NCBI RefSeq assembly: GCF_006345805.1
Contig: NC_043000.1
Span: 23,436,001 to 23,500,000 of the forward strand
Direction: 5' to 3'
DNA length: 64,000 bases
Source of the DNA: Octopus sinensis
Taxonomy: Eukaryota
Shown: positions 11,576 through 52,523 of the stretch, in pieces
Layout of the letters: every line of letters begins with the position of its first letter
Numbering within the stretch: position 1 is the first letter of the stretch
Translations under genes and position numbers: made by a program
The notes under the pieces: generated by a model
What the model was told of the DNA's origin: nothing
Seen by the model: only the letters and a program-made list of their open reading frames with translations
Database searches by the model: none

Positions 11576-12221
11576 TAAAAGGGTATCTCTATGCCGCTAA
11601 GATAAAAAGGCAAATGTAACAGGATCTAGTGGAGAGTAAGCTGAGTACACATGGTTGTTTTGATGTGTTTCAAGTGATTTAATATGTTGATCAGGTGCAG
11701 GTATGGCCATGTTGTTTAAGTTCACCATCTCTCTATCTTGGGTATATATCTTTTATAAAGCATAGCTTGGTCTATACCTTGTGAATGGGGTACAGTAGAC
11801 GGAAACTGGGCAGAAGCCTGTCGTGTGTGTGTGTGTGTGTTTATATCACACACACAACATCAGTCTAAAAACCAATGTTGTTCTTTATGTCTGTAACTTA
11901 ATGGTTCAGCAAAAAGAGATCTATAAAATAGGTACAGGCATTGATGTGATCAACTAAGACTTTTGATGGCTGTGCCACAGCTCAGTGACTGAAACTAGTC
12001 GTTAAATTTTAGCTATTCAGTCTCGCATGAGTTTTTGATGGGTAGATTAAAAAAATGAAAATACTGAATTAAGATTAGTTGACCAGCAGCACCTTCAGAT
12101 GAAAATGTAAATTTATTTTATGTATACTTATGAATGTATTGAATTGATTTCAAATTTATATGTATTTGTGTGTATTTTCTTGTTAGTTTAAAGCTGTTTT
12201 TTCTTTCACTTTTTTCTTCAG

Positions 12222-17400: not shown

Positions 17401-19987
17401 GATCGAACAAAATACCTTGTGGTATTTAGCTTCACCTCTTATATCAAATTCTACTATTGGTTGACTTTGCCTTTCCATCCTTCCAGGGTCAGAAATATTC
17501 AGTTATTCCCTTCCCCACCAAATCTGAGGCCTTGTGCCTTTGTTAAATATTGTTAAGGTAGACGTTTGGCAGGACTGTTAGGTATTGGGGGGAAATGCTT
17601 TACATTCGGAGTTTGAATCCCACTGAGGTCAATAAAATACAAGACTGGTCAAGCACTGGGTTCAATTTAAATGAGTAAACCCCTCCCCCCAAAATTGCTG
17701 GGCTTTGTGCCTAAATTAGTAACACTAATTATTGCATTGAAGTTGGAAGAAATTGTAGAACATGATTACAGTATTTGGCCTTGTTCCTTTAAGGTTCTGA
17801 GTTCAAGTCCCGCCAGGGTTGACTTTGCTTTTTTCATCACTTTGAGGTTGATAAAATAAGTACTAGTTGTATACTAGGTCAGTTCAATTGATTATGTCCC
17901 TCTCCTTACAAACTTGTGGCTTCATGCTGATATGTTTCTTCCGGCTTCACATTCTGAGTTCCAATTTCACCGTGGTTGATTTTGCCTTTCATCCTTTTGG
18001 GGTTGATAAAATAGGTATCCATTGAGTACGGGATTGGGGAAGGTCAATGTAATCAACTAGCCCCCACACACACACACACACCCAAAATTTCAGGCCTTGT
18101 GCCTATAGTAGAAAGATTATTATTGTTATTATTATTATTATTATTATTACTACTACTACTATCGCCAGTACCACCACCATCACTCCCCTCCCATTATCAT
18201 CGTCATTATTATCATCACCATTATCTTCATTCTTATTTAATTTGCAAAATTCTACATTATTTCATTGAGCTTCTCTCCAGAAATACACTGCTTTAAACAA
18301 AATAAAATCCCAGGTATAATGGGTGACAACTCCAGGTGTATATGTTACCAATGATGGGTTGTGTTAATATATGGACTTCAAAACTCATGAATGAGAAACC
18401 TTGTCAAATAGTTTTGACTGTATGTAGATCGTGCAGGTGGAGTAGGACACATGTGAGGAAATAAAAAATAAAATGAGCTGAGTAACATTTGACAAGATTG
18501 ATAAGAAAACAATAAATGAGATCCAATCAACTTTTTCTACTGATGTTAATGTTTTTGTTGAATATCTTTTGTATATATAAATAAACTGCTTTATTAGCAA
18601 CTTCTTGCATCTCAATTTGTGATCTCCCATCATTCCAGTCTCTTTATATAGTTCTCAATTTTCATTTGTTTAATTCTTTTATTTCAAGTTAGATAACTCT
18701 TCAATATCTCAAATTTTGTTCATTGCATGCATTCGTGACTTCATTTTAATAGATGATTTTTTTTTCTTTTTCTCTCTCTCTCTCTCTCTTTTTTTTTTTT
18801 TTTTTTTTTACATTTTCCCCTCTTCATATTCATAGTTCAACTTATGCCAGTTTTATACCTATGCCACAAACATTTCCATTTAATCAAGAATGTCTAACTT
18901 CTATTCTTCAACTGATGCGAAAGCAGACATGAAAATGCCAAATTTACTAAACTTCTTAGTTTATTTTTCCTCCAGGAAGATGTATTTTATCTTGCATCAA
19001 ATTAGCTAAGAGATCAGTTTAGTGTTTACCGTTTTTTGGAACAAGTTGGTAGATCTCCTCCTTCTCCAAATTTTGAGAATATTTAATTTCTTTCTTAAAA
19101 AAAAAAAAAAAATCAACAGCTGAGTTTCTTAACTTGCCATTTTTTATGTTGGGTGACAGAAGTGAAACAAGGTTAAAACCTGTGACATGTAAACATAATT
19201 TTTTTTTTTTCATTGTATTTCTTCGGTAATACAATTACTTTTATTTATTTATTTTTCCCCTCAAATTTCACAACCAGTTAATCCAAATCAACACAGACAC
19301 ATTTCTATATAGATTTAAAAAAAAAAAAAAGACACAACTTTGAAATTACAGCAAATTTTTTCTCGTGTTATTCTGGAGAAGAAAAAAAAACGTCTTTACA
19401 ATATGGTTTTCTTTTATTTTTCAATTGACAAAATAATGAGAATTTTTTTTTTTAATATAATCTGGAAGTATTTAATGTTTAGTCCAGTTGGATCATGCTG
19501 ACCTGGTTTAGTAAAAATGGAAGTGGTGTGTGTGTGTGTGTGTGTCTGTGTCCATGTGCATATGTGTATTGAATAAATGAATGTGTGAGGTGGGCTAAGT
19601 TATGTGATAGTGTGAAAAAGATTTTGGAAATAAATATAAGCCATGATGTGTATAGAGTTACAAAACAGAAAAATATATCAAATAAATATGTTTAAAATGT
19701 TTCCATGTATTTGTTGCTTTCATTTCATTTCAGATTTGATATCCAAAGCTGTCCGTAAAACATCCTCATCTACAGACGTGATAAGTGCAATGTGAAATTA
19801 ACTGGTTGTAATAAAAGCATACATTTGTTTAACTGATTACTCAGAGACAATATTGGATTGTGGGAATTAGAAGAATATAATAATTTTGAAAACAAAAGCT
19901 CACTGCTCTTTTCATTCCTCTAGCAATGTTGACATCTATGAAATTTTGTTTAGTTCTGCCTGTCTTGTTCCATTCAGAAAACTTACA

Positions 19988-22330: not shown

Positions 22331-23420
22331 CCCTTTGTTACCAACCCGGCTGAAACTGGCTCTGGCTCTTTAGTATAAATGTCTTGTTTTTATAAATTTT
22401 GAATTAAAATCTTCCACCAAATCTTAGTCACAATTTATGTTCCTAACACTAGCTTAATGGTAACTAAGTTATTTTACTAAATTCTTTGTTATATTTAAAA
22501 TAATTGGAAGAAACACAAAGCATCACAAAATAAATACAGTAACATCATCATCATCATCATCATCATTTAACGTCCGCTTTCCATGCTAGCATGGGTTGGA
22601 TGGTTCAACTGGGGTCTGGGGAGCCCGAAGGCTGCACCAGGCCAGTCAGATCTGGCAGTGTTTCTACAGCTGGATGCCCTTCCTAATGCCAACCACTCCG
22701 AGAGTGTAGTGGGTGATTTTATGTGCCACCGACACAGGTGCCAGACGAGGCTGGCGAACGGCCACGCTCGGATGGTGTTTTTTATGTGCCACCGACACAG
22801 GTGCCAGACGAGGCTGGCAGACGGCCACGCTCGGATGGTGTTTTTATGTGCCACCGACACAGGTGCCAGATGAGGCTGGCGAACGGCCACGATCGGATGG
22901 TGTTTGTTATGTGCCCACAGCATGGAGGCCAGTCGATGCGGTACTGGCTACGGCCACGTTCAGATGGTTTTCTTGTGTACCACCGGCACTGGTACCACAA
23001 AGATACAAATTCCATTGATGTTCATCTATTTTGATTTGTTTTGATTTTCACTTGCCTCAACAGGTCTTCACAAGTGTCACAAGAAGGAAGGTATGCACAG
23101 GTGGACTGACTACGTCCCAGGTAGGGGCCACAGGTTATGGCCTGACTAGTCTTGCCGGGTCTTCGGATGGTGTTTTTATGTGCCACCGACACAGGTGCCA
23201 GATGAGGCTGGCAAACGGCCACGATCGGATGGTGTTTGTTACATGCCCACAGCACGGAGGCCAGTCGGTGCGGTACTGGCTACGGCCACGTTCGGATGGT
23301 TTTCTTGTGTGCCACCGGCACTGGTACCACAAAGATACAAATTCCATTGATGTTCATCTATTTTGATTTGTTTTGATTTGATTTTGATTTTGATTTTCAC
23401 TTGCCTCAACAGGTCAGGGT
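22331..23420. mobile_element. TTAA MITE whose right TIR is interrupted by a (GAT)n-tailed repeat (22544-23416)
   Basis: ttaacccctttgttacc...aatacagtaac|catcatcat...caacaggtc|agggttaa. The insert contains ~62-bp tandem units and a ~250-bp internal duplication. Confidence 0.75.
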
Positions 23421-29085: not shown

Positions 29086-31663
29086 ACAGTAATCAGAGAC
29101 TTGTTGACACAGAAATTTAAAGTTCTAAATGTAAGTCTCCATCACTGCATCATTTAATAAATATATTCCTCTATTCCCAATGATATCGAGGTCAACCTCT
29201 TTTGTCATCACATGATGTTTGTCAATATACATCATCATCATCATTTAATGATACTGGCAACGGCCACGCTCAAATAGTGCTTTTTATATGCCACCTACAC
29301 AGGAGCCAGTCCAGTGACACTGGCAACGACCTCGCTCGAATGTTTTTCACGTGCCACCAGCACAAGTGCCAGTTAGGCAACGCAGGTAATGATCACGCTC
29401 AAATGGTGCTTTTTACGTGCCACCGGCACAGGAAGGAGTTTGTAGTTTTGGCAACGATCACGCTCGGATGGTGCTCTTAGCGCTCCACTAGCATGGATGC
29501 CAGTCATCGAATTTGATTTCAATTTCGATTTCACTTGCCTCAACAGGTCTTTGCAAGCAGAGTTTAGTGCCCAATGCATATTAAGCCAGTAGATGCTTGT
29601 CTTTCTGGAAGCGTGTAGAAAATGAAAGGTAACTTATGTACATCATTTATTATTCTTGTCCTTTACATCCATATTTATCCAGTTCTGATGGTTGGTCACA
29701 CTGAAAAAACTGCAATGCATTTAGAGCACCTAGTTTTAGTCTCTCATCAGATTTTCTTGTCAAAATATTTTCTTATACTTCCTCCACAGTAATAAATTCC
29801 TGCCAATCTCTTCTTGTTTCAATACCACAAAAGACCACATCCCTAATACTATTACCATTCTGCAGACCTTATCACTAACACATGTGTTTACTTCCAGGCT
29901 TTTTAATTTCAATCTTTTAATATGCATACATTAACATCTTTCTTGTCCTGAGGGTTACCAATGACCCTATCCCCATGCTATATACTTAATATATTATAGG
30001 AGTCACCAGAGATTTATACTATATTCTTAATCTACCATTGGGAGTCACCAGTGACTCCCAGTGCTGATGCTATTTCCACGGAGTGTCTCTTTACTGTGGT
30101 TCAAACCACATTATTCGAATCTGAAGAAATGTACAGAACACAGGTATCAGAAGGGTGCAAGTCACTGTCATCTCCATCATTGGAATGCTACCCTCCATAA
30201 AATAATTTTTGTGAAAAACAAGCCATTAGGGCTTATATATTCTGTAGAGAAAAAAATCCATAAATGGAAGTATAATTGATGTTTTAGCATTTATTAACAT
30301 GTGTCTCACAGGTGACTCATGCAGTTCAGAATAAATATATTTGTTATGTACGACAGGTGAATCCAGTGATACCCATGCAATAAATCAATGTGGTAGTTTA
30401 TGTGTATCATCATCATCATTATCAAAAAAATTAAAAGATGCATAATTTATAGCAAAATTAAATCATTGGTACAAAAGAAAGTATAGTACAAAATTAGATT
30501 GGCAGGCAAAATGTAAAACTTGATCAAGTATATTAAAATATAAACTTAAATGCAAACAAAACATTGTTAAACAGTGACAATGCAATAAAATTGTTGTTGT
30601 TGTTATTCAACCTCAATCAACAGTGACTGAGCAGATTTTTCCAGCCTTGGGGGGAATATGTATCTAGGCCTACAATATTTAATGTGTCCTTTTGCTTTTT
30701 AAGATGACTATCTCACATGGGAAATTTGATACAGAGCTTCCAAACCAGTAGGCAAGGTCAAGACAGTTGACAGTGAATAATGATAGACATAAGAATGTTA
30801 TATTAAATATTTGTTCAATAAAGTAAGACACAGCAAAGGTAAACTACACAATAACTAGAAAAACAAATATGCATTATATATATTATTATGTGTGTGTATA
30901 CATACACACGTATATGTGTACTTATATTTATTTTCTATTATACATATTCTACTTATTGTATAACATTACTATTTTATGTACACTCCTTCATGTACACTGT
31001 TTTACCCTACATTATTATGTTTAACCTAATAGTTTCTTATGTGGTGGTTTAATAAAGTATGTGGTTGAGTATTATCTGGTAATTGATATTTGATTTCGAT
31101 GTATTTCTCCATTTTCTTATTTTGTATATATATATATATATATATATAAATATGGTATTATAAGTTCAGCAAAAATTTAGATTCAGAGGGTATATATCTA
31201 CCCTCTTTGTAATGGAATAAGTATAAAAATGAACATTGTCAATTTAATTTTAAAAATTCCATATATGCCTGAAGAGTGCTCTACATTTTAAAACTGATGT
31301 AATACTTACATTGTTTAATTAAATGAAGTAGCATGAAACAATTGTACTACACTACCTTTGGATATCCTTGTTGCTTATTTTGAGTATATATATATAAATA
31401 TAATAGGATGGTCAGGTCAGAGGGAATGTTTAAGCTGGCAGAAGTGTAATAATTGTGTGTGTATGTTTGTGTGTGTTATATAAGTTTAATTAGAATATCA
31501 ACCAAAGGGGCAGTCATCAGTTTTTAAACTGGATCCACCATAATCTGTCTAGTAAGGGAAAAAGGAAAAAAAAACCTCCAAAAACTAGATAATATTTATG
31601 TTTGCATGGATTTCAAGAGAAGTTGTCCAGACCTGCTGAAATCCTACATGGCTACAACAGGGG

Positions 31664-35546: not shown

Positions 35547-35976
35547 TGGACACATTGAAACTCCGACGTCTGGCAGCTGACCTGGCAGACACCCATAAAA
35601 TTATCAACCATCGCACAAACAATAACACTGAGCACCTCTTCAAACTCCACCCATCTAACACCCGTGGACATATTTACAAAGTAAGAAAACAGCACAGCTC
35701 CCATGACTTCAGGAAACATTTTTTCACGCTGAGAGTTGCTGAAGCATGGAACAAACTGCCGGCATCGGTTGTTAGTTGTCGGAGCACTGCATCCTTCAAG
35801 ACTTCCATGCTTCCTGAGATTCACCAACACTACACTTGATTTTCTTCCCTCCATACACACACAAGCATGTTCACTTTCCAGACATTTCTACATTACTGCA
35901 TGTACTTTATATGCACTTTCTGACAAGTTGTGGTGCACCTGAGCACTGTATACAATAATTTCATTATTATTATTAT
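35547..35976 (+). mobile_element. 5'-truncated CR1/L2-group LINE 3' end
   Basis: LRRLAADL..THKIIN...TRGHIYKV...RKHFFTLRVAEAWNKLPASVV...FK C-terminal motif, 3' UTR and (ATT)n tail. Same family as 47354-48043. Confidence 0.85.
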
Positions 35977-36662
35977 AAAAGAAAGTATAGTACAAAATGT
36001 TAATATATGTATATTAAAAGATTGAAATTAAAAAGCCTGAAGATAATCTTTTTTTTTTTGTTAAATTTTAGATTTGAAAACAGATTTTTTTATAACTTTA
36101 CATGTGAAATGAGCAAGTAACTCTTTTGTCCAACTTCCAGTGTACCACAAAATTAAAAAGATTAAGATCTTCACAAACTCACACACACCCACATTTATGA
36201 ACACTAAAATATGAGTAGTTATTTAACAGTTCTCTCCCTTGTAAATATTTCTTAATATCTCTGCATTCGGATTAAAGTATATTTTTTTTTTAATCTTAAG
36301 AACGGGAACGAAATTTGCTTAGGGAGTGCAAACCCAGTTTTTCAGGAGGATGTTCAAAGTGTTTTCATTGCCCCCCTCCACCCCAAAAAAAAAAAAAAGG
36401 TGTGCTTGCGTCCCCTGCACCCGAGCTTATGAAAAAAAATTGTCTTGAGGTGTAAAACTTTCACCTAAACGAATTATATTATTTTCGTAACAGAACACAT
36501 AATAACAGAATGATAGGAAATTTCTATTTTTCTCATTAAAGGATGAAACGTTTGGTTTTTCGTCGCAAAAGCAGAAATACTTTAGTTTTCTGTTATAATT
36601 TTATATTTCCATTCACATCTCGAGTGTTTTATAACAATATTAAACCGATCCAAATATTGGAT

Positions 36663-36970: not shown

Positions 36971-39792
36971 TTGGTACTTATATTTTAACAATTTCGGAAC
37001 ATCCAAAAGCGAACTTGATCTCGACTGGATCTGAACTTAAAATGTAAAGAGCCTCAACTAAATGCGATAGGCATTTAGTCTGATAGTCTAACATCTCTGC
37101 TCACCAATGATGGAAAAAGGGCGATGGTGGTACTCAAATGGTCAGCATTCGCCAACTTTTCAACTGACAAAAGTAGGAGCTTTACGATGTCTCCCTTTGT
37201 AATCTTCATTTTCATAGACCTTGGCGTACACTAAGTTCCTAAAATCCATTTTCTGACAATATTGCCATTTGATGTAGGTGTAATTTCTAAAGTGTGTTAT
37301 TAGAATGTCAGTTTGTGATATGATTAGATTTACAACAATAGTTAAAAAATACCGTATTTTAACGTGTTTAAGGAACCCCACTAATTTTGGGGTCTTAAAA
37401 TTTGGAAAAAAGGTTATCCATGAATAAGAAACTCCCATATTTTTTAGCCTAATTTTTGACAAAAAAGGGTTCCTTATACACATTGAAATATGGTATTTCA
37501 TCATTTTTTGTCAATAGATATGGTGTAGGATTATCTGTGTGTTTTTGATGTGGTTGGGAAGTGAATTTCTTAACCAAGCGGCTATGCCGGCATTTATATT
37601 TAGTCTATATAAACCTACATGTGTTTTTATCATCATTTAGTGCAGAACTTCTTTCAGTTTGCCTCAAATAGAACTGAGCCAAATTTTGATTAGTATCGAT
37701 TTATACATTAAGTTCACTGCTGACCTTAACCTTATTTTCAACATTCTCATTCGTGACATATATCTCTTGCATGTCACATGTCGTTTAGTCACAGCTAGTA
37801 TTCACATTGTCAGTCAAATGACATGAAATCATGTCAAAACATTTTTAGGTCAACAAGTGTAATTCTAAGATTTAAACACCAGTAGTCTTATCCTGATACT
37901 AGTGTCCTTCACACTTATAAAGACAGTAGTGAGTTGAGGGAGATTTTAGTTATTGTTTCTAGCAGGATGAGCAGTTTTAAGCAAAAGTTTTAATTAGGCC
38001 TCCCCAAATCAGATGTAACTCTATTAACCACCGCATAGGATATAACCTATGAATACACTTAGCGAAGTCAATTCTTTAATACTGCGATTTCAAGCGAGTT
38101 TTATTCTAAAAAGATTGAATAATGTATAAATGTAATACAGAATGTCATCTTAAGGTATGTGTAGACAGACGGGTGGTCTCACAGACTTAAGGGCATAATT
38201 ATAATCTATGTAAGTCAATAAATAAATACTGTAGGGCCCAATGAATGCATTGATTTGCCAGGGAGCCTATAGCAGTGCTAAGACAGCTCTAGAAGCAGGC
38301 ATTACGCGGACGACAAAATAAAAACATCAAACACGTGTTTACACGCTGTTGCTATTGTTTAGGTCCTGCCTGTTAACCTTAGTCGAAGAAGACCTTATGG
38401 TTAATGGCATTTCAGCTTTGACCATCCAGTGTCTTCCACCTCACATGTCAACCACGAAATTATCTAATGTGACCTTGCCCCCACTTATTATTTTTTTTTC
38501 AACATTAGGGTTTGATTTAAGGGAAGCATGATAAAGTTGTTGATAAAGTTAAAACTAATAAGGGTGGATAATAATAATAACAACAACAACAACTATTGAT
38601 GTGTTTAATCCACTGGTCATAAGTAACTGCTAAGCTCTTGCACCAGAGCTTAACACTAATTTAATTACGGCCAAGTAAAGAATTATGTCGAAATCATTTA
38701 TAAGCACCTCACGAGCTTCGTTTAGCAATTTCACAGAAATGAGATTAATGTCATGGAAGCTGCTATAGTCTTATGTAAAATAATATAAATTAATATTATT
38801 GGTCAAAACAACTTTAACAAGATGTGATAATAAAAGAAACATCGTTATTGTTGATTAAGTTGAAGCTAGAAACCAGTTATATTAATTAACTAATTAACTA
38901 GGCTCATTGAAGCAATCTGGCGACAAGTGAGACTGTGATAAGATCTGTTGGAAATAGCAGCCAACCTCTTCTCAAACCACACTGTCTTAAACAATGAAAG
39001 AATATATTCGATAATGTAGTTTGCTGTCTGGAGAAAACAGATGTGGATGGTCATGGCTGGAATGCTTTTGATTATAGATATCTGCTTGATCAAGTCTACC
39101 CTCGATTCAATAACTGAATGTGTCTCCGATCGCATCAAGTAACATCCTCTAGGCAGACGCTCAACATGCTAGAAATAGCAGCCAAATTCTTTCAGCTCAC
39201 CTTATTGTCTTAAAAAACGAGAAAGACACATTAGTCAAACGTCTTAGACGAGATAGTCGTAATTGGAACGTCTTTAATCATGAGTCTATTCAAATAATAT
39301 TGACTTTGGGACTAACAACAACGGGTCTACCACTGCAGGATATAAATAACATCGGACGATGTCAGTAAACAAGGAACTAATTATATTTTACATAAAAACA
39401 GAAACATAAAAAATGTGTCAACAAATATCTTGGCTCAAGCTTCGACTTATTTAATAAATATTTCTTTTCACATTCCTTATAAAAGATATTCTCCAATGTT
39501 GGATTCCGAAGTTATTTCGAAACTAAACAAGTTTGTCACATTTCGTTATTAATTAAAATAACGATAGTTCGAAATTCCATGCATGAAACAATATTTCTAC
39601 GCAGTACCATGGATATTATACAAGGGCTAACTTTATAAAAGGTGTATAAACAAAATATACGACTGTTTACTAAGAACAATTTTAAAATAACATCAAAATT
39701 TCCTTTACCTTTGCTGGTCACAACAAATTCGCAGCTTCGTTATAACTCCCAAGAGCAGATAACTCCACTTCAGTATGTTCTCATCTTACGTC

Positions 39793-39819
39793 AATAATAA
39801 TAATAATAATAATAATAAT
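39793..39819. repeat. (AAT)9 microsatellite at the Tx1 3' junction
   Basis: Direct inspection. Confidence 0.95.
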
Positions 39820-40100
39820 CAATTCTTTTTTATTGGCCACAAGGGCTGACACGCATGATTACATAAAGGGACAAGACAGGACGAAAGGTTACAAAGGGTT
39901 TTGCCGTTTTTTAAAAACATCGAGTAAAAATCTTTATAACAACTTATAAAATTCAACAATGAAAAACTCCCAAAAGGGGGAGACGTTTCGAAAGGTTCCT
40001 GGTGGAAAAAACCCTACAAAAGCCAACGGGAGCCTGGTCAAAAAAAGAGGGTGTAGAGAGTCTCCTTTCTTCTCCTTTTACATTACCTTTTTCTTTGAAA

Positions 40101-43100
40101 TCACAGGCGAAACCTGAGAACTGGTCCATTTATACAGGCCAGTCTCGCACAATTCACCCACCTTTCATAAAACTTGCTATCGGACAGTACTTTCCTCTCT
40201 AACCTCATCTTCCTTTTCAAGTGAAACTTGAAAAAGTTGATGAGGCCTTGACCAAAGAGGAAAGTGTCTGACTTTAGCCCTTTCAACCGAGTCCACCACA
40301 CGACTTCTTTCGCCACAGCCACAAGGCACAAGAAAACGGCCTCGCCCTCCTTGTTAAAGGAGGTCGGCGGGGCAATCTTCACTATGGATTCGGCCGATAG
40401 TCGGATCCGTCCTATACGTGACAGTAGCTGTTCGACATAAACCCATATTTCAGCAATACTCGGGCACTGAACGAGTGCGTGCAGAACGGTTTCATCGTCC
40501 TGGCAACACCTCGGCAGGCCCGGCTGACGGCACTTCCGTGCCGGTAGAGTTTATCTCGAACAGGCAGAGCCCCTCGGTAGCACTGCCAGGCGAGAGACCT
40601 CTGGAAATTATCCATCGGCCCCGGCCCGAAAGTCCTCCCGAACAGACCGCTCAGTTCGTCGTCTTCAACGCCTAGAGTTTCCCCGAGAACGTCGTCGCAT
40701 TTTTCCTCCACTAACCTCTATAGAACGCTAGAGTGGAGCTGTAACCGACCGCATTGCCCGCCTGGCGGAGGGCGGAGAGGGCTTGACGGCACTCGAGGTG
40801 CCAAGCGCCCTTTCTCGGTCTACGTTTGATCCAGGTCTGCAGCTCCGTCAAAGAGACGAGCTGCGGAAAATCGCGTCTGACAAAAGACGACCACACCTGT
40901 TCACCGTCTAGGAAGCGCTTGAGATGCCGCAGCCTGAGCGCATGTCTGCGCACACAGCAACCACGGCATTCCAAGGCCTCCGTTCAGCGGTCGTTGACAG
41001 CAGATGGATCGCCTGACCAGTGGCACCTGACCCTTCCACAAAAAGTCGAAGAGCAGGCGTACCAGCTTGGCCAACCAGCGGTCGGGACAAGGGACGACGG
41101 TCAAGCGGTAATAGATGACGGATGCGATGTACGCATTCGCCACCTCCGCTCGACCTTTCAGGGACAGCTTCCTCTCGGCCCATTTCTGGGTGAGACGTGC
41201 CACCCTGCTCGTCACCTCTTCCCAGTTCTTATCCACCTGGAGGTCCGGACCGAACCAGACCCCGAGCAGTTTAACGGGTCCGTCTGTCCAGCGCCCTACG
41301 ACGCTGTTGGACGGCATGGGCTTGCCTCTCCAGGTGCCCAGTTGCAAGCCCACAGACTTTTCCGCGTTAATCTTTGCCCCTGTCACCGCTTCGTACTGGT
41401 TTAGCGTCTCGCCAATCAGGCCAATGTGCCTGTGGCTCGACACCACCACGGTGACGTCGTCGGCATAAGCAGACACGCTGTTTCCGCCTCCTAGATCGCG
41501 CGGGATGCCCCTCAAAGCCTCCAACTTGCGCAGTAATGGCTCGAGAGTCAAAATGTACAAGAGGGAGGAGAGAGGGCATCCTTGGCGGACCGAACGCGAG
41601 ATGTCGAACGGTTCCGAAAGGTGACCGTTCACTCGTATCACCGAGCAGATGTTGCTGTATAAAGCAGCGATCCATCCGCGGAAGACTGGACCGAAGCCGG
41701 CTGCCCTGAGGACATTGCCAGGTACCGATGGTCGACCCTATCGAGGCTTTACTCTGATCCAAGTTGATCAAAGCCCCACCCGCGCCAGCGTCGTTACCCA
41801 CCCTCTCTATGATGTAGCGCATGAGATGGAGGTTGTCGTGTATCGACCTGGTCGGCACGCGCATGTCTGCGGTCCGCCGACCAGCTTGTCCACGACAAGC
41901 GCCAATCTCTTGGCTAGCACCTTGGCCAAAATCTTCAACTCTGCATTGAGCAGAGTGATGGGCCGGAAATTCCCTATAACGTCCCCCTTGTTTGGGTCCT
42001 TCTTTAGCAATGCCACCACCCCTCGACAGACAAAAGCAGGAATTCTCCCGTTTTGCTGCCAGTTGCAGTAGACGTTTGCCAACAGGTCCGCAAACAAGTC
42101 TGGCATTGAAAAGTAAAGCTCGTAGGGCAGACCATCCAAACCGGCAATCTACCTCTCGTGCAACTTTCTTCATCGCTTCCTGTACTTCCCAGGCAGATAT
42201 CGGTCCTTCGCAGCACTCTGCCTCGCTGTCCGAGAGTTGCGGCAGTCCGTCCAGTACACACCGAAGTCTGTACCGTTGGTGTCCGTTCCACCGCTCGTCC
42301 CAAACAGTTGAGCAAAGTGCCGCTGAAGCACCGTACACATCTGCTTCGGTTGGGTAACCTCGCGCCCGTTCTGGTCCACCAAAGACCGAATGGTTGCTCT
42401 GTTGCCTCGCTTCGCCTCCGCCACGCGGGCCCATCGAGCGGCTCTAGTCCCCTCCCCGCTTAGCGAACGTGCCTTAGCTCTGACAACGCAGCCTTCGTGT
42501 TTGGCGTCGAAGTGTTGGTCGAGGCCCACCTTGCCGCCAACACGTCGGTCGCGATGCCAGTGTCAAGAGCCTCGTCTAGTTTCTTAACTAAATCCCGCTC
42601 TCTCTTCCTACGTTTAATAGCTAGAGTCTTACTATACCTAATCGACTCTACTCTAATTGCTCTCTTGAGGGCAAACCACCAGTTGTTGTTGATGATTGCC
42701 CCCGTGAGCGCCCGCTTAACTAGTAAACTAATCCGGTCTCTGTAAGCTTTGCACGCCGTTAACGACGCGTTCAGCTTCCAGTAACCGGGTCCCTGTCTAT
42801 GTAGCCTATCTAAGTCGACCGTACAGATCACTAATTTGTGGTCCGTATATTCGACTAGGTGGAATTGTGGACACCCTACGCTGTCCTTATCCGCTGGCCT
42901 ACAAAACACTCTATCTAAGTACGATCTAGACGACCCGATGCGGTTTGTCCAAGTCCACATTGGCACATTCGGGTTGTCTAGTCGAAACCTGTCGGACAGC
43001 TGAAAGCGGCCGAGTAGGTTGGCGAGGCTCTTGCACCCTCCCCCTCTCCTATCAGACGCTCCCCTGCCCACACCGATCGAAACGTTCGTCTAAGACAGCG

Positions 43101-43530
43101 TTCCAATCCCCAACTAGTACTAGAGTGCGTGACGTTCCCAGGAAAACTTCCAGACGTTTGAAATAATCCGACTGCCCTGCTCCTGTCGGAGCGTAGGCAG
43201 CCAGCAGTCTGAAAGCACCGCCGTCACTACCGTCCACGTCGAGGACCACCAACTTACCTTCCGGATCCAAGAAGACTGTCCTTATTTTCAGGTCCAGGCC
43301 CTTCCGAACAACACCGCAGTACCACCACCGCCCGCTCCCGGCCGACACGGAGATAGTAATATCTCGTATCCGCCGAAAAGGGCTGCGAGTTCCTGCGGGT
43401 CGGAGAGCCTGGTTTCACTGATGGCTGCTACATCCACATCATGAAACCTCAGGTCGTTTAACAGGTGACCCTGTTTCCAAGGTGACCCGAGGCCTCTCAC
43501 ATTCAAGCAACCGATTCTAAGATTTGCCAT
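40101..43530 (-). pseudogene. Tx1-like ORF2 (AP endonuclease + reverse transcriptase + C-terminal zinc finger), frameshifted
   Basis: MANLRIGCLNVRGL...ISET; LVGDWNAVLD; SYLDRVF; TDHKLV; GPGYWKLN; DGLPYELY; NFRPITLLN..KILAKVLA.RL; RQGCPLS..LY; SAYADDVT; LGVWFG. Split into overlapping ORFs by single-base shifts. Confidence 0.9.
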
Positions 43531-43569
43531 GTTTCAAAAGTTAGGGGAAAAAAAATGCGAAAAAAGGCT

Positions 43570-44398
43570 CTACTTACTGTTGTTGGTGGTGGGGGTGGCT
43601 CCCTTGTGCTTTTGCACGGGTGCTTCAATGATATTTTTGTAAAGTTTCTGAGAGAAACTTTTCCCTAACGATCCCACATCGTTAGGGAATATTTGTTTTA
43701 TTTCGTTGTAAACTGTTTTGTTTATTTTTATTGTGAGAATGTGTGCTGGTGGTGTGTTGTGTGTAGGTATTATGAAATCTGTAATGTTTGTGCTTGTTTT
43801 GTTTTTCAAATACTCAACCAGTTCCTGGTTTCTTGTATTCACTGCTGTAATCGTGTCTGTAATTGTGTCTGTGTTTGTTTGTGTCTGTGGTAGTGGCAGT
43901 AGTGGTGTCGAAAGTGTTGTTGTTGTTGTTGTTGTTTGTTGTTGTGGGGGTGTGTTGTTGTTGATGTTGTTGTTGATGTTGGGAAGTACTATTTGTTCGT
44001 GTTTCCCCTGTAAATCTTTTTGTTTTTTCCTCCTTTTCTTTTTTGGAGGCACTATGTTCCATTCTCCTTTGTTGGAATCAGAGCTCGCACAATCCGAGAT
44101 CTCTTCATCCGGCAAAGGAATGGTTGAGGGGTCTGCTTCAGTAGCAGGACGAAAAGTTTCTGGTTCCGCCGGTATCGGTGGTGCCGCTGCTCCTGTTACT
44201 GTTGATGTCGCTGCTGTCGACCTTCGAGGTACTGGTGTCGGTGTTGGTTTGGTGGTGGTTGTCGGTGTTGTTTGGTGTTGGTTGTTTTGTTGTTGGAGGT
44301 GGTGTTGTTCGTCTTGGTGCTGGTGTTGGTGATGGTGTTGGTGGTGTGGCAGCCTTTGGTGTTTCTGCTGTTTTTGTTGTTTCTGTTGTTGTTGCTTG

Positions 44399-44429
<31 letters not shown>

Positions 44430-45451
44430 GCTGCTGCCTCTTGCTATACTCCTCCATTCTCTTTTTTTGAATGGGCAGTCCTTTTTAGGTGGCTTTCGCT
44501 ACTGCAGAGGAAACATTTTGGCTTTCGCCCCTCTACAATAACATTTAGCCTTGTCCCATCCAGCAAGATGACAAAGTCAGGTATGGCATTGATGTTTTCT
44601 GCTGGATCTGTACCAGCAGTTGAATACCCATGCCTGACCAGTTCTTTTCTCGTACCCTCCGAACATTCAGAATAGTGGCAGTGTCTTCTATGCCATAGAG
44701 GACAGCCGCCACTAGCCATGAGATTTTCTGTTCGGGGGGTATTGTGCTTATAGTTATTTTTTGTACCTTACGCCCGAGGTACGTCGGGAGGAACAAATGT
44801 TCATTTTGCAAGGGCGAAATGGCGTTCGCCCTTGCAAGCTCCTCTGTTGGGAAGCGAACCTCCACGGTTCCAAATCGCTTCCCTCTTGTCACATAGCTCT
44901 TCTGGCCCCAAATGGGCTTCAGAGCCATCTCTAACTGTTGTGGTGTGGCGTTAACAATCTTTTAGTTTTCTTTTCGAAGACTTTATAAAAGATTGTTCTT
45001 TTGTTTGTCTCTTGTGTGAGTTGTTGAGGTGTGTTGAGGAAACACTGTTCCCCTCCTTTCTCAACAAATCTTGTGCCATCTTTATGTCCTCCATCGTTAT
45101 TTCTACATCTTCCGAAATTTGCTTCGCAGCAGAAGCAAATCGTTAGAGTTTTTTACATTTTTTGTTGGTTCTTGTCTGTATTTTTGTCTGTTATAAGTTT
45201 CTTTTCCTCCCTCTTCGGTACAGCATCACTTGTTGAAGGCAGAGGAGGGAAATCAAGAGTGACGTCGAACGCGACGTCCTGGCTTGCATTCTCCTTTTGA
45301 ACCGAGCGCGTGCTCTCCGGTTCGGAAGGAGGATCTTGTTGCCTTTTACGGCTTGAAATGGGTTGTACGTAACCCGTGACGTTGCCTTTTGTTCTTGTGG
45401 AGGGGGTGTTGCAAGAAGGAGGGAAGAGCCAGCAGCTCGTTTTAAAGCCAT
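43570..45451 (-). pseudogene. Tx1-like ORF1 (gag-like, zinc knuckle, polyQ/low-complexity tail), frameshifted
   Basis: Probable start MALKRAAG at 45451. GRKPKCFLCSSESHLKRT resembles a CX2CX4H knuckle. Q/H/T-rich tail with PPKKKRRKK NLS-like motif. Confidence 0.7.
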
Positions 45452-45670
45452 TTTGTAAATGTGTGTGTGCATAAAAATGTCAATTTCAATGTAATAAAGA
45501 GCAATTTCACCCCGAAGGGGCAAAATTTCGCCCAACCGACGAGGCTCCGCAAGAAGCCGGTCGGTTTGGCTACAAAAATATTAAAAATATTCAAACCTAT
45601 TAAAAAATTTCCAATAAAATTGGCACAAAACTCACAGAGCTGATTCACGTACGTCCATCGGCGTCGGAAA

Positions 45671-45671
<1 letters not shown>

Positions 45672-45707
<36 letters not shown>
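45672..45707. repeat. (AAT)12 between the Tx1 5' end and the Dong-like fragment
   Basis: Direct inspection. Confidence 0.95.
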
Positions 45708-45708
<1 letters not shown>

Positions 45709-46367
45709 TATAAAAAACCTGGATTTGCCCCATGAAAAAAACTGGTGGGAACACAAACCACCCCCAGTGCTTGAAAATGACCACATCTCACTCCTCTGGA
45801 ACTTCACCATTCAAACTGACAGGAAGATAGATGCAAATAGGCCAGACATCATATTGAAAGACTTCAAACAAAGAACATGCCTCCTCATTGATATGACTGT
45901 CCCAATCGATATAAACGTATCTGTCAGGACCTACCAAAAACTGAGCAAATATAAAGATCATTGAAATAGAAATCAGCAAAATGTGGAAGCTGAAGACTAA
46001 ACAATACCTGTTGTCATAGGTGCCCTGGGAATGATAGCAAAAGGGGCTGATAGCTACCTAACTCAGATACCAGGAAACCCAAAATGGCAGAAGTTCAAAA
46101 GATAGTGCTCATGGGACTGCTCATATCCTACGCAAAATACTCTCTATGTAACCTCAAGGTTTAAAACAACCATAATTTCGGTTTAAAAAAAAAAAAAAAA
46201 AAAAAAACTTTTTTTTTTAGACATTCATTAGTACAACATCCCCACCCCCCAAATATATGGCACACTAGGCATAACAACAACATGAACTTCCAACCCTGTT
46301 GTCTCTTGAGGTCTCTGGGTGAGACTTGGAGCCAACTTGTACAAATATAAAGCAAAAGTCAAACATA

Positions 46368-46368
<1 letters not shown>
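45708..46368 (+). mobile_element. 5'-truncated R4/Dong-clade non-LTR element (restriction-like endonuclease domain + 3' UTR)
   Basis: WWEHKPPPVLEND..LLWNFTIQTDRKIDANRPDIIL.D......LLIDMTVP...KLSKY, then (frameshifted) IPVVIGALG...VQKIVLMG..HILRKIL. This is the RPD..D..K.KY RLE signature. Confidence 0.8.

Positions 46369-46428
<60 letters not shown>
46369..46428. repeat. (AAT)20 microsatellite
   Basis: Direct inspection. Confidence 0.95.
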
Positions 46429-47200
46429 TCGTTTATTGGCCACAAGGGCTAACAAAAATCAGTTAAATACCAAACATAAAGGGATAAAACACAGGACGAA
46501 AGTTACAAAGGGTTTTGTCCGTTTGAAAAAGTCCGTGTACAAAAGCAGGATAACAACGAAATGTAAGTAACAATAGGGGGGAGGCGCTTCGAAAGGTTAC
46601 TCGTGGAAAAACCCATAAACTCCACGGGAGCCTGGCCAAAAGGTGGGTAGAGAGCCCCTTTCTCCTTTTATATTTCCTTTTAATTTTCACAGGCGTATCC
46701 TCAGAATTGGTCCGTTCATACTGGCCATTCTTGCGACATTCGCCCACCTTTCAATAAACTTGCTATCAGACATCACTTCCCTCTCTACTCTCTACTTTCC
46801 TTTTCAAGCGAAACTTGAAAAAGTTGATGAGGCTTTCGGCAAAGAGGAAATTGTCTGACCTTAGCCCTTTCAAACGGGTCCAGCATATCACCTCTTTCGC
46901 TATAACCACTAGGCAAAGGAAAACTGCATTGCCCTCCCGGTTAAAGGAGGTCGGCGGGGCAATTCTCACTATGGATTCAGCTGATAGTTGATCCGTCCTA
47001 TACGCGACAGTAGCTGTTCGGCATAAACCCATAGTTCAGCAATATTCGGGCACTGGACGAGTGCATGCAGAACGGTTTCATCGTCCTGGGCGCACCTCGG
47101 GCAGGCCCGTCTGACGGCACTTCCGTGCCGGTTGAGTTTATCCCGAACAGGCAGAGCCCCTCGGTAGCACTGCCAGGCGAGGGACCTTTGGAAATTATCC

Positions 47201-47202
<2 letters not shown>
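46429..47202 (-). mobile_element. Second, 5'-truncated Tx1-like copy (diverged subfamily)
   Basis: MDNFQRSLAWQCYRGALPVRDKL...CPRCAQDDETVLHALVQCP matches 40400-40615. Similar 3' UTR end (gtggccaataaa). Confidence 0.9.
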
Positions 47203-47239
<37 letters not shown>

Positions 47240-47245
47240 GTAATA

Positions 47246-47287
<42 letters not shown>

Positions 47288-47353
47288 GTAATAGTAATAA
47301 TAGTAGTAGTGGTAGTAGTTAGTAGTAGTAGTAGTAGTAGTAGTAGTAATAAT
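47203..47353. repeat. (AAT)/(AGT)n compound microsatellite
   Basis: Direct inspection. Forms the tail of the adjacent CR1-type fragment. Confidence 0.95.
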
Positions 47354-48043
47354 GAAATTATTGTATACAGTGCTCAGGTGCACCACAACTTGTCAAAAGT
47401 GCGTATAAAGCATATGCAGTAATGTACAAATGACTGGAAAGTGAACAGTGAATGAGTCAGCTACATGCTTGCGTGTGTATGGAGGGGAGAAAATCAGGTG
47501 TAGTATTGGCGAATCTCAGGAAGCATGGAAGTTTTGAAGGATGCAGTGCTCCGACAACTAATAACTGATGCCGGCATTTTGTTCCATGCTTCAGCAACTC
47601 TTAGCATGAAAAAATGTTTCCGAAAGTCATGGGAGCTGTGCTGTTTTCTGACTTTGTAAACATGTCCACGGGTGTTAGACAGGTGGAGTTTGAAAAGGTG
47701 CTCAGAGTTATTGTTAGTAAGATGGTTAATAATTTTATGGGTGTCTACCAAGTCAGCTGCCAGACATTAGAGTTTCAATGTATCCATGCCCAGGGAAGTA
47801 AGGCGTTCAGAATATGGCAAATGCCTGATGGAGGGTATTCTCTTGGTTGCACGTCGCTGAACGGCTTCCAGACTATTAATATCCTGGGCAAGATAGGGGT
47901 TCCAGACCGGTGATGCAAATTCTAGGTGAGGTTGCACCATAGCTATATAAAGCTGCAGATAGATAGTTGGAGAGCGGCTCACAAAGGACTTGGTGAGTGA
48001 TGCCAAGACACCCTCAGCCTTCTTGGCAATTTTAGCAATATGG
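47354..48043 (-). mobile_element. 5'-truncated CR1/L2-group LINE
   Basis: LYIAMVQPHLEFASPVWNPY...LEAVQRRATKRIP...YSERL...TRGHVYKV...FFMLRVAEAWN. Its 3' end is identical in form to 35547-35976. Confidence 0.85.
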
Positions 48044-49729
48044 TCTTGTCACATTTTGTGTCACAATGAATCTCCCTGGCAACTACATTAAGGGTATGTG
48101 TATCAGCCACTTGCGTGTTAATTTCATGAGCAGGCTGGTTCTGTCGATCAGATCAACTGGAACGCTTGTGATCTTAACCAACAGAGCGCAGTTATATGTA
48201 CATGTGTGTGAGTGTCTGTATGTATTCACAGACATTGGTCCAGAAACAGCTTGAGAAGATTCCATGTATATAACATGCTTACACACACACACACACACAC
48301 ACACACGAAATGGCTGACACTAGAAAAGACAAAATTAATAATGGAAAATTTCCATAACACACTTGAATTTGAACTTTTGATATTTCATTTTCTAGAAATC
48401 CGAAACCCAGTAGACACTCACGATAAACCATCTCACAGCAGCAAATGGATTCAAGTAATACCATGGGAGATATTAGCATTTATGTTGAAATATAAAACCT
48501 TCAGAAATTAATTTTATGTCTCAAAAGAAACTTTCTTGTGTCATTTGTAATCTATATTAGATGTTCCACAAAGCCTAAACCAGCAAAATCTAAGTCCTCC
48601 AATCTCTAGTCACCATCAGTCTGTGCTGGTTGCCATTGGGGCCTCAGGTGTTTTCAGCCCCTGCACTACTGATTTCCTCCACAAAACCAGGATAACTATG
48701 GTCCATCTAAGAAACGAGCTCCGTAAGATGGGATGGCTGTTGCAATAAGTGCTGCTGGCCATTCTCCAGGGCAACACCTTAGCAATTATGTCCATGAGGT
48801 GTGGCCAAACATACCATTTACTCTGGGAGAGTACAACTTGTTATTTCCTCTCCCATATCTTCTGCTGCTTGCCTCTCTCCCTGTTTTTCATTTTTTTTTT
48901 TGTTTCTTTGCTGAAGTAGTTATAGGGTTTTTTCTCAATAATTTGAACTTTTAAATTCTTTTATTTGTTTCAGTCATTTGACTGCAGCCATGCTGGAGCA
49001 CTGCCTTTAGTTGAACAAATCAATCCCAGGACTTATTCTTTGTAAGCCTAGTACTTATTTTATCTGTTTCTTTTGCCGAACCACTAAGTTACAGGGATCT
49101 AAATGCACCATCATCGGTTGTCAAGTGATGGTTGGGGGGCAAACACAGACACACACACATATGTATATTTATATACACGACGGGCTTCTTTCAGTTTCTG
49201 TCTACCGAATCCACTCACAAGGCCTTGGTCAGCCTGAGGCTATAGTAGAAGACACTTGCCCAAGGTGCCATGCAGTGGGACTGAACCCAGAACCATGAGG
49301 TTGGGAAGCATGCTTCTTACCACACAGCCACACCTACATCTGTTTAATGTTTTTTTTCTTTTCTTTCTTTTCTTCCTATAAAAATATATTGTTGATATGC
49401 CTTCCACAAAAATGTAGAATGACAAGATTCTTTCTGTGTTTGCATACAAACTTCACTCCTGGGACTTTGGTATGCCTTGGGGTTTATAGTAGAAGACACT
49501 TGCCTAGAGTGCCATGAAGTAGAACTGAACTTGAAACCACATGGTTGGGAAGTGAACTTCTTAACCACCCAGCCACACCTACACTTCCATTTTTATATTA
49601 TTTTAGAATTAAGTTTCCTTCAGTGAAGATAAAGAATGAATTTGATAAAAAATAGAATGAAAAATATCAATACTGAAGATTGACTTCCTTGAGTAAGAAA
49701 GAGTGACTATGTCCCTTGGAATAGGGGTA

Positions 49730-50540
49730 GGCCAAGTGAATCGTTAGCACGCCAGGTGAAGTGCTTAGCGGTATTTCGTCTGCTGCTGCATTCTGAGTTC
49801 AAATTCCGCCGAGGTCGACTTTATCTTTCATCCTTTCAGGGTCGATAAATTAACCCTTTAGTGTTTAAACTGGCCATATCAGGCCAAAATTGTCTTCCTG
49901 TTTTATGCTCAAACTAGCCAGCTCTAACCTCTCACACCTACCCTACAAAGTCATTCTAAAAATAAACAGGGACATCATCAAAATCTCAGAGTTACAAGAT
50001 GCTGTACAAGTAATTTAAAACAATATAATTAAACAGGCTTTACATTTGCAGATTAATCTGAATGCTAAAGGGTTAAGTACCTGTGATGCACTGGGGTCGA
50101 TGTAATCAACTTAATCATTTGTCTGTACTTGTTTGTCCCCTCTATGTTTTGCCCCTTGTGGGTAGTAAAGAAATAGGTATTTCGTCTGCCATTATGTTCT
50201 GAGTTCAAATTCTGCCGAGGTCGACTTTGCCTCTCAACCTTTTGGGGTCGATTAAATAAGTACCAGTTACGTACTGGTGTTGATATAATCGACTTAATCC
50301 ATTTGTCTGTCCTTGTTTGTCCTCTCTGTGTTTAGCCCCTCGTGGGTAGTAAGGAAATAGGTATTTCGTCTGCCGTTATGTTCTGAGTTCAAATTCTGCC
50401 GAGGTTGACTTTGCCTTTCATCCTTTTGGGGTCGATTAAATAAGTACCAGTTTTGCACTGGGGTTGATGTAATCGACTTAATCTCTTTGTCCTTGTTTGT
50501 CCCCTCTATGTTTAGCCCACCTGTGGGCAATAAAGAAATA
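49730..50540 (+). mobile_element. Tandem array of Meta-like SINE bodies with a TTAA MITE (49854-50072) inserted in the first
   Basis: Three repeats of ggtatttcgtctg...aagaaata. The MITE has TTAA TSDs at 49850-53 and 50073-76. Confidence 0.75.
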
Positions 50541-51186: not shown

Positions 51187-52523
51187 TGTTGGGTTGAGGA
51201 ATAATTCATGAGGGTTTTTTTTTCAACTTTAAAAATGCACACAGAAATAAAATGGATTAACAAAATGTTTTATGTTATTTAAAACAAAGTTTTTGGCTCT
51301 ACAAGATAGTGTGTTTTGATTTTTTAATTTTATTGACTTTTGTGTATTTTTAGATCATTAAAATGGAATGTCAAATGGACAAAACTGAGCCTTTTTGACA
51401 CCAGTTGCTTTTTGTATTTAATCGAGGTGTTAAGGCTGCTGAAACTGCTCATGAGATTTGTGCTGTGTGTGGAGAAGGAGCAATGCTTCAAAGTACTGCC
51501 TGTCATTGGTTTCTGTGCTTCAAAAATGGGAATTTTGACCTCAAGGACAGATCACACAATAGTTGAGCAACTGAGTTCGATGAAAAGCAATTGAATCAAC
51601 TTCATCGTCATTATCATCATCATCGTTTAACACTCGTTTTCCATGCTAGCATGGGTTGGATGGTTTGACCGGGGTCTGGGAAGCCAGGAGGCTGCACCAG
51701 GCTCCAGTCTGATCTGGTAGTGTTTCTACAGCTGGATGCCCTTCCTAACACCAACCACTCCGTGAGTGTAGTGGGTACTTTTTACATGCCACCGGCACAG
51801 AGGCTAGAGGAGGCTGGCAACGTCCATGATTGGTTGGTGCCTTTTACATGCCACCAGCATGGACGCCAGTCAAGGCGGTGCTGGCATTGGCCACGTTCGG
51901 ATGGTATTTTTTACATGCCACCGGCACGGGTGTCACAACTACAATTGCCTTTGATTTTTATTTTGATGTTGATGTACTTGACTCAATAGGTCTCCTCAAG
52001 TACACAAGGTCGCCCTATGATCTGAGGTAAGCCCAGCAGACCATCCCGCAAGCCATGAACTCACTTCATTTATTGGGTTTTCCACATCAAACAGCCAGAG
52101 AATTGGTGGAGCAGATGGATTGTGATAAAAAAATCTGTGGTGAATAACCTTCACTCCATGGGCAAGGTTCACATTGCCAATATGACCAAAGCCATGATTC
52201 AAGAAGTTGAATGGGAAGTGCTACCTCATCCTCCATACTCTCCAGACTTGGTGCTGTTGGATTTTCATCTCTTTCAACTGCTTTTGAATGCTTTGCATGG
52301 CGTATCGTTCAATAATGATGTAGAATTGAGGGCTTGGTTAGACGAATTCTTTGAGTCAAGACTGGGAGATTTCTATAGCAAAGGATCAAAAAACTTATTG
52401 AATGATGGGAGGAAGTTGTAAACAACAAAGGAGAGTATATTATTGATTGATTTTTTTGTTTAAAATAAATTTGAAAAAAAAAACAAAACAAAAAGCACTC
52501 ACAAATTATTCCTAAACCTAATA
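51187..52523 (+). mobile_element. Degenerate mariner transposon, interrupted by a (GAT)n-tailed repeat (about 51603-52120)
   Basis: Imperfect TIRs (ttgggttgaggaataatt / aattattcctaaacctaa). N-terminal KAAETAHEICAV.GEGA....CHWF..FKNGNFDL and C-terminal WEVLPHPPYSPDL..DFHLF. Confidence 0.85.

Follow-up and report, generated by a model that had tools for sequence, protein, structure and literature searches.

Two copies of a Tx1-like LINE in one octopus microsatellite array suggest a preference for (TTA)n

Does a Tx1-like LINE of Octopus sinensis choose (TTA)n microsatellites as its insertion sites? Among APE LINEs, site-specific families are reported only from the Tx1 and R1 clades (PMC6007223), and many Tx1-clade families are target-specific, several of them for T-rich microsatellites (PMC4494074); here and below, statements from the literature draw on portions of the cited articles. 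The published Tx1 microsatellite targets that we found are (TC)n, (TTC)n, (TTCC)n and (TTTC)n, and the same source treats a family as target-specific when one sequence type makes up more than 20% of its flanks (PMC4494074). A sequence-only reading of the window (the whole stretch of 64,000 nucleotides analysed here) had proposed a Tx1-like family specific for (TTA)n. We observed (TTA)n at the 5′ junction of both copies of this family (2/2), which share the same orientation (minus strand) and lie in one array (Table 1). The explanation that we favour, with a rough probability of 0.6 given two copies in one array, is that the octopus Tx1-like family prefers (TTA)n/(TAA)n and that this preference is set mainly by its endonuclease.

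Table 1. Coordinates of the LINE cluster, its arrays, and the sibling CR1-like copy with its empty site
Feature	Position	Strand	Content
(AAT)9 array, at the 3′ end of copy 1, outer edge of the cluster	39793..39819	.	
Copy 1, near-full-length L1-group (Tx1-like) LINE	39820..45671	minus	
ORF2 of copy 1	40101..43530	minus	APE endonuclease, reverse transcriptase, zf-RVT
ORF1 of copy 1, several frames	43570..45451	minus	RRM-like part, CX2CX4HX4C knuckle, low-complexity part
(AAT)12 array, from the 5′ end of copy 1 to the 5′ junction of the Dong-like fragment	45672..45708	.	
Dong/R4-like LINE fragment, 5′-truncated	45709..46368	plus, opposite to the Tx1-like copies	
(AAT)20 array, from the 3′ end of the Dong-like fragment to the 3′ end of copy 2	46369..46428	.	
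Copy 2, 5′-truncated Tx1-like copy	46429..47202	minus	
Compound (AAT)n/(AGT)n array	47201..47353	.	expanded 3′ tail of the CR1-like fragment and 5′ flank of copy 2
CR1-like LINE fragment, 5′-truncated, whose tail seeded the array	47354..~48048 (upper boundary approximate)	minus	
Sibling CR1-like copy, internal control	35547..35976	plus	ends in (ATT)4
Empty-site paralogue of the sibling's insertion site	30405..30494	plus	without (ATT)n

The window consists of AT-rich animal DNA, in which the region at 40–45 kb forms a GC-rich island. Outside the cluster, two other compound arrays, at 18116–18161 and 38568–38593, consist of (ATT)n–(ACT)n and (AAT)n–(AAC)n; they carry no Tx1 copy and are possibly the tails of more decayed elements. 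Abundant SINE-like repeats contain tandem units, of 184 nt in 2.6 copies at 50074–50540 and of 63 nt in about three copies at 22717–22915 and 29256–29430. A decayed mariner-like transposase was recognized by eye at 51350–52450 (plus strand), interrupted by a SINE-like repeat at about 51603–52010; HPPYSPDL near 52220 is presumably a mariner transposase motif. An open frame of 824 codons at 12143–14617 (plus strand), with an acceptor-like site near 12222, a C2H2-like motif near its start and a stop at 14615–14617, is probably a single large host-gene exon. This frame gave no Pfam match, and the protein from its first ATG was absent from the protein collection that we searched.

Copy 1 consists of a 5′ UTR of about 220 nt, ORF1, ORF2 and a 3′ UTR that ends in AATAAA..GAAT. 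Pfam identified Exo_endo_phos and RVT_1 in its ORF2, a domain set that is also found on intact relatives, and all of the catalytic endonuclease positions are conserved (7/7). The ORF2 product is identical to that of the intact relative P0004 at 664 of 911 residues. A profile of 20 relatives matched human L1 ORF2p with an E value of 4e-185, compared with 2e-52 for R2, and Foldseek analysis of a model of P0174, a relative from Argonauta (pLDDT 87), placed L1 ORF2p at ranks 1–7; the choice between L1 and R2 by profile and structure is a coarse one, because these are the only full-length LINE proteins with solved structures. PDB searches with the single sequences P0002 and P0006 and with a piece of the window returned nothing useful. 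The element had been described as encoding an APE endonuclease, and its ORF2 does combine APE, reverse transcriptase and zinc knuckle in a protein closest to L1 ORF2p.

Proteins of Argonauta hians matched the element at 60–62% over the reverse transcriptase and the C terminus. Like the 87% match of the neighbouring LINE fragment to an Octopus bimaculoides protein (see below), this indicates that the DNA comes from a cephalopod of octopus type. Four of the 13 distinct relative clusters carried names, all of them 'hypothetical protein' and three from Argonauta hians. We placed copy 1 in a tree of 163 rows, for which 162 of the 283 stored proteins were chosen by length and coverage. Copy 1 formed a group (support 99) with three close relatives, of which one is from Argonauta, and this group lies within a clade of 41 rows (support 100). 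The sister clade of 37 rows (P0005, P0008, P0171 and P0176–P0248) contains unnamed ORF2 proteins of about 1,145–1,155 aa that are 37–41% identical, and the endonuclease hairpin loops in that clade are mostly longer, at 12–15 residues. Judged from these sequence comparisons, the element is an L1-group LINE that is Tx1-like by its build, with no named Tx1 family among the rows of the tree. When bacterial and archaeal genomes were scanned with P0004, none of the 31 pattern matches was a relative, and a scan with the 19-mer common to the 3′ ends gave three matches, none further similar to the element, which we treated as chance.

A separate ORF1 with an RRM and a CCHC knuckle belongs to the build of the Tx1 clade. 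The ORF1 knuckle of copy 1, CX2CX4HX4C, is split by a frame change, and the RRM is a lead from the Atlas only, in which the second match was a cluster with RRM_1 in 18% of its members (score 0.92); Pfam gave no match for ORF1. The tail of ORF1 (43570–44484, minus strand) is a long stretch of low complexity that is rich in Thr, Pro, Gln and Asn and is built of (ACA)n and (CCA)n. ORF2 of copy 1 contains 11 frameshifts, mostly single-base losses, and no in-frame stop. Under neutral decay, the probability of finding no stop is 0.004–0.10 when 12 to 5 substitutions are assumed for each indel. This pattern suggests that the copy is young and that its long-read sequence is unpolished. The frameshifts are likely to be errors of such reads in a young, high-copy repeat.

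Copy 2 contains the last 171 codons of ORF2, including zf-RVT (Pfam E 1.5e-10) and a stop at 46687–46689, followed by the 3′ UTR; its part of ORF2 has two frameshifts and no in-frame stop. Read on the minus strand, the 5′ junction of copy 2 runs from ...TATTATTAT directly into GGATAATTTCC, and at the corresponding position copy 1 has ...GGGCCG-AT-GGATAATTTCC (40615). Because copy 1 continues above GGATAATTTCC, copy 2 is cut in the middle of ORF2 at 47202, and its first codons, MDNF of ORF2, directly follow (TAT)n, as the sequence-only reading had stated. Two nucleotides at this junction, AT (47201–47202), are common to the element and the repeat. The 5′ end of copy 1 (45671) directly adjoins (ATT)12.

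At the 3′ ends, copy 2 reads GCCAATAAAC-GAAT-(TAT)n and copy 1 reads GCCAATAAAAAA-GAAT-TG-(ATT)9. Both copies had been said to pass from AATAAA..GAAT straight into (TTA)n in a single orientation; this is correct for copy 2 and for the orientation, but in copy 1 a 2-nt interruption, TG, precedes the repeat. Neither copy has a poly(A) tail (0/2), and in both AATAAA..GAAT passes into (ATT)n. A 3′ poly(A) after AATAAA is usual for L1 but is not universal in Tx1. No conserved RNA structure was detected at the 3′ end of the Tx1-like element (z 0.95 and 0.10), and target-site duplications of the two copies are unreadable inside a repeat.

The two copies are identical at 678 of 839 columns (81%). Over 168 shared codons, with frameshifted codons dropped, dS was 0.29 and dN was 0.105, which gives a dN/dS of 0.37 (95% bootstrap interval 0.21–0.62; Fisher p 0.0002), and the differences were distributed 19/14/33 over the three codon positions. 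Purifying selection works on active source elements and not on dead copies, so this ratio indicates that the copies were made separately, from different source elements. The earlier claim that they are independent insertions therefore gains support from codon evolution, and we rejected a single insertion that was locally duplicated and then decayed neutrally, on the basis of the same ratio and of the codon-position differences. In a C-terminal tree of 17 rows, the branching did not settle whether the copies are sisters, yet each was the other's nearest row. With copies that differ to this extent, the choice of (TTA)n would have recurred in two source lineages.

We also found that the (TTA)n flanks are unlikely to have arisen by chance. 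Positions that follow a perfect (TTA)n run of 9–18 nt make up 0.11–0.18% of both strands when the cluster arrays are counted, and 0.006–0.035% outside the cluster. Two (TTA)n 5′ junctions would be expected by chance with a probability of about 1–3e-6 (at most 0.0018 per junction), a post hoc, window-based figure for two insertions that lie in one array. As a control, we examined the ends of other self-repeated segments outside the cluster, and (AAT)3/(ATT)3 was near none of them (0/92). This control missed the tail at 35963–35976 because it lies inside a merged interval, and is therefore an undercount by at least one.

The array that precedes copy 2 originated as the (ATT)n tail of a CR1-like LINE, an element that the sequence-only reading had not mentioned. 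The fragment in the cluster is 88% identical over 447 nt to 35547–35975 of a sibling copy and has one premature stop; the sibling ends at the same base, in (ATT)4 (tail 35963–35976, 14 nt). From their C-terminal motifs we take both fragments (47354–48048 and 35547–35962) to be CR1-like; neither gave a Pfam match. The sibling sits in a duplicated segment, the other copy of which (30405–30494) is empty and lacks (ATT)n; the CR1-like family thus carries its (ATT)n tail with it when it enters non-repeat DNA. About 2 nt are duplicated at the sibling's insertion, and the (ATT)4 tail arrives with the element. The duplicated segment also matches 29895–30038, and one piece of it is inverted at 35994–36081. 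In the cluster, the tail above copy 2 has expanded and has partly changed to (ACT)n. The CR1-like copy has no repeat at its 5′ side, and no target-site duplication of 5 nt or more was found for it across the whole cluster. The sibling and its empty site rule out that the upstream array is the tail of the Tx1-like element itself, a point on which the sequence-only reading was right.

CpG observed/expected ratios were 0.99 for copy 1 (ORF2), 0.85 for copy 2, 0.41 for the CR1-like fragment and 0.35 for the background. The Tx1-like copies have kept their CpGs and the CR1-like fragment has not, which fits an earlier arrival of CR1, although the contrast could come from the composition of the source elements instead of age. 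The simplest history, which we consider likely, involves one CR1-like tail and three later insertions, in an order that we infer from the anatomy. A CR1-like LINE would have inserted at a site of no special kind, the (ATT)n tail that it left there would have expanded, and the array would then have taken two Tx1-like insertions, from different sources, and one Dong/R4-like insertion.

Another possible explanation for the 5′ junction of copy 2 is that it did not form by insertion of copy 2 at all: the CR1-like element may have inserted into an older and longer Tx1 copy and eliminated the part above the junction, or a later deletion or an assembly join may have brought the CR1-like tail up against the middle of ORF2. 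The CR1-like origin of the array above copy 2 is consistent with this. Tails of the CR1 type have a few bases in common with their targets (PMC6007223), and such an overlap would account for the shared AT as well; the 11 frameshifts without a stop in ORF2 of copy 1, with their suggestion of unpolished long reads, point the same way. However, about 5 kb of Tx1 sequence would have to vanish, and neither tblastn nor blastn found any Tx1 remainder beyond the CR1-like fragment. That fragment looks older (one stop, CpG-poor), the window contains no N gaps, and the 5′ end of copy 1 adjoins (ATT)12 independently. Furthermore, about 80% of truncated L1 copies have microhomology at the 5′ junction, so the 2-nt overlap of copy 2 is typical of truncated insertions (PMC2912911). 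We regard a non-insertional origin of this junction as highly improbable.

Between the two Tx1-like copies lies a plus-strand LINE fragment, which was also absent from the sequence-only reading and which comprises a C-terminal restriction-like endonuclease region and a 3′ UTR. An RPDII..D..K-type motif was recognized by eye at 45839, and the stop is at 46149–46151. The fragment is flanked by (AAT)12 and (AAT)20 and is 87% identical to the Octopus bimaculoides protein P0006. Pfam, PDB and the Atlas gave no family name for it; from the restriction-like endonuclease motif and the flanks, we take 45709–46368 to be Dong/R4-like. The 3′ UTR has an internal A23–T9 run (46185–46207). The fragment is very poor in CpG (observed/expected ratio 0.17), and its 5′ junction may have about 5 nt in common with the repeat. 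Insertion into TAA repeats has been reported for Dong (PMC3812793, PMC1635306), and Dong-R4 elements are abundant in Octopus vulgaris (92.7 Mb, 51 families; PMC13282606). Because the fragment is opposite in orientation to the Tx1-like copies, its enzyme would nick the opposite strand.

The presence of a Dong-like insertion raises the question of whether the array itself, and not the Tx1-like family, accounts for the flanks. A fragile or Dong-nicked array could have supplied breaks to an untargeted Tx1-like family, whose flanks elsewhere would then be random. A single array holds all three of the later insertions, including the Dong-like one, and the reported use of TAA repeats by Dong (PMC3812793, PMC1635306) is in line with such nicking. 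In addition, other arrays in the window lack a Tx1 copy: none was found at two other (ATT)n/(AAT)n runs of 13–24 nt or at the sibling's 14-nt tail. With only two copies, both in one array, a trait of the family is not separable from a trait of the locus. By contrast, both copies have intact 3′ ends and share one orientation, opposite to that of the Dong-like fragment, and since they come from different source elements, an accident at a hot spot would need to happen twice. We consider a local hot spot quite improbable.

If the family does prefer this repeat, insertion would take place by target-primed reverse transcription, as expected from the class of the protein. (TTA)n on the sense side implies that the APE endonuclease would nick the (AAT)n strand. 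The resulting 3′ OH would prime cDNA synthesis at the 3′ end of the RNA, just after AAUAAA..GA, perhaps aided by (AUU) repeats on the RNA that pair with the target, and the 5′ end would then be joined within the repeat, in copy 2 through the 2-nt microhomology. An L1-type enzyme cuts TTTT/AA on the bottom strand (PMC2912911), and such a nick would be expected to favour the opposite orientation in this repeat, as seen in the Dong-like fragment.

The hairpin loop of the endonuclease is reported to tune nicking (PMC1950540). The loop of the octopus element has 10 residues, as in human L1 and two fewer than in the Tx1L graft, and its sequence varies among all close relatives that cover it (5/5). 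In the rows from which the loop was parsed (59 of 70), its length carried no information on specificity. The proposal of a (TTA)n-specific family is helped by the improbability of chance flanks but draws no extra support from an endonuclease with a loop of L1 length.

The L1-sized loop would suit a different source of the preference, namely the RNA: its 3′ tail of (AUU)n would pair with nicked (AAT)n, and the endonuclease would be as loose as that of L1. Both copies pass from AATAAA to (ATT)n without poly(A), which fits pairing of this kind. Pairing at the 3′ end has been proposed for CR1, L2, RTE, I and R1 elements (PMC6007223), and the nicking and integration preferences of an L1 loop chimera differed (PMC1950540). 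However, the CR1-like family also has an (ATT)n tail and yet entered non-repeat sites in both of its copies (2/2), so in those cases a tail that matches the repeat was not enough for targeting, and from the Tx1-like copies the 3′ repeats are indistinguishable as the element's own or the target's. We consider it unlikely that the RNA is the main determinant, and we keep to a (TTA)n preference that would be set mainly by the endonuclease. A wider proposal is possible but tentative, and we lean against it as a whole: that an undescribed cephalopod Tx1 lineage, with an APE endonuclease that recognizes the (AAT)n strand specifically, has kept this target across its subfamilies and shares the microsatellite with an opposite-strand Dong, on arrays seeded by untargeted CR1-like tails. 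If this were true, one LINE would make safe sites and two others would exploit them.

To place the element among known systems, we compared it with published LINEs. L1-Tx1 elements are annotated and abundant in octopus genomes (PMC13282606, PMC8967140, PMC10294476), with 80 families, 56 Mb and 13 recently active families in Octopus vulgaris (PMC13282606), and the family described here is probably among these annotated repeats. No insertion targets are given in the portions of those accounts, and of one supplement, that we used. Our literature search found no target analysis of cephalopod L1-Tx1 elements (including in the available parts of PMC3747384, PMC8967140, PMC9115989, PMC4640811, PMC10294476 and PMC8869645). 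It likewise found no Tx1 family specific for (TTA)n/(TAA)n, which agrees with the suggestion that the specificity is undescribed but is weak as an absence, with Repbase and Dfam outside the search.

The ORF2 of human L1 and that of Xenopus Tx1L share the APE–reverse transcriptase–zinc knuckle organization of the octopus element (PMC1950540; PDB 8uw3, 1vyb and 2v0r). The octopus ORF2 is shorter than that of human L1, with about 1,140 compared with 1,275 codons, and the octopus copies lack poly(A). Tx1L targets another transposon (PMC1950540), whereas the octopus element lies in (TTA)n. Dong of Bombyx, DongAg, DongBg and Rex6 (R4 clade) have been reported in TAA repeats, the microsatellite that is used here (PMC3812793, PMC1635306). 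The Tx1-like element does not itself belong to the Dong/R4 clade, in which a restriction-like endonuclease is C-terminal; its APE endonuclease is at the N terminus, and ORF2 ends after zf-RVT.

Closest in habit are other APE-type Tx1 LINEs of T-rich microsatellites: Kibi at (TC)n and Koshi at (TTC)n in teleosts, and crocodilian Tx1 elements at (TTCC)n/(TTTC)n (PMC4494074, PMC3812793). Compared by description, Kibi and Koshi have teleost hosts and (TC)n or (TTC)n targets, whereas the octopus element has a cephalopod host and (TTA)n flanks, which sets it apart from a Kibi/Koshi-lineage target. The preference would not represent a new kind of system, as Tx1 elements that target microsatellites and LINEs that target TAA repeats have already been described. 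If true, it would extend the few targets listed for APE retrotransposons specific to microsatellites, a kind of targeting that one review describes as poorly understood (PMC3812793). It would be a natural example of convergence by two unrelated endonucleases on a single repeat, and part of an explanation for nested LINE clusters and for how abundant (AAT)n is in octopus genomes. It would also offer, in (TTA)n against the (TTC)n of Koshi, units that are one base apart if the published unit follows the same strand convention, a one-base contrast for mapping the specificity of the APE fold.
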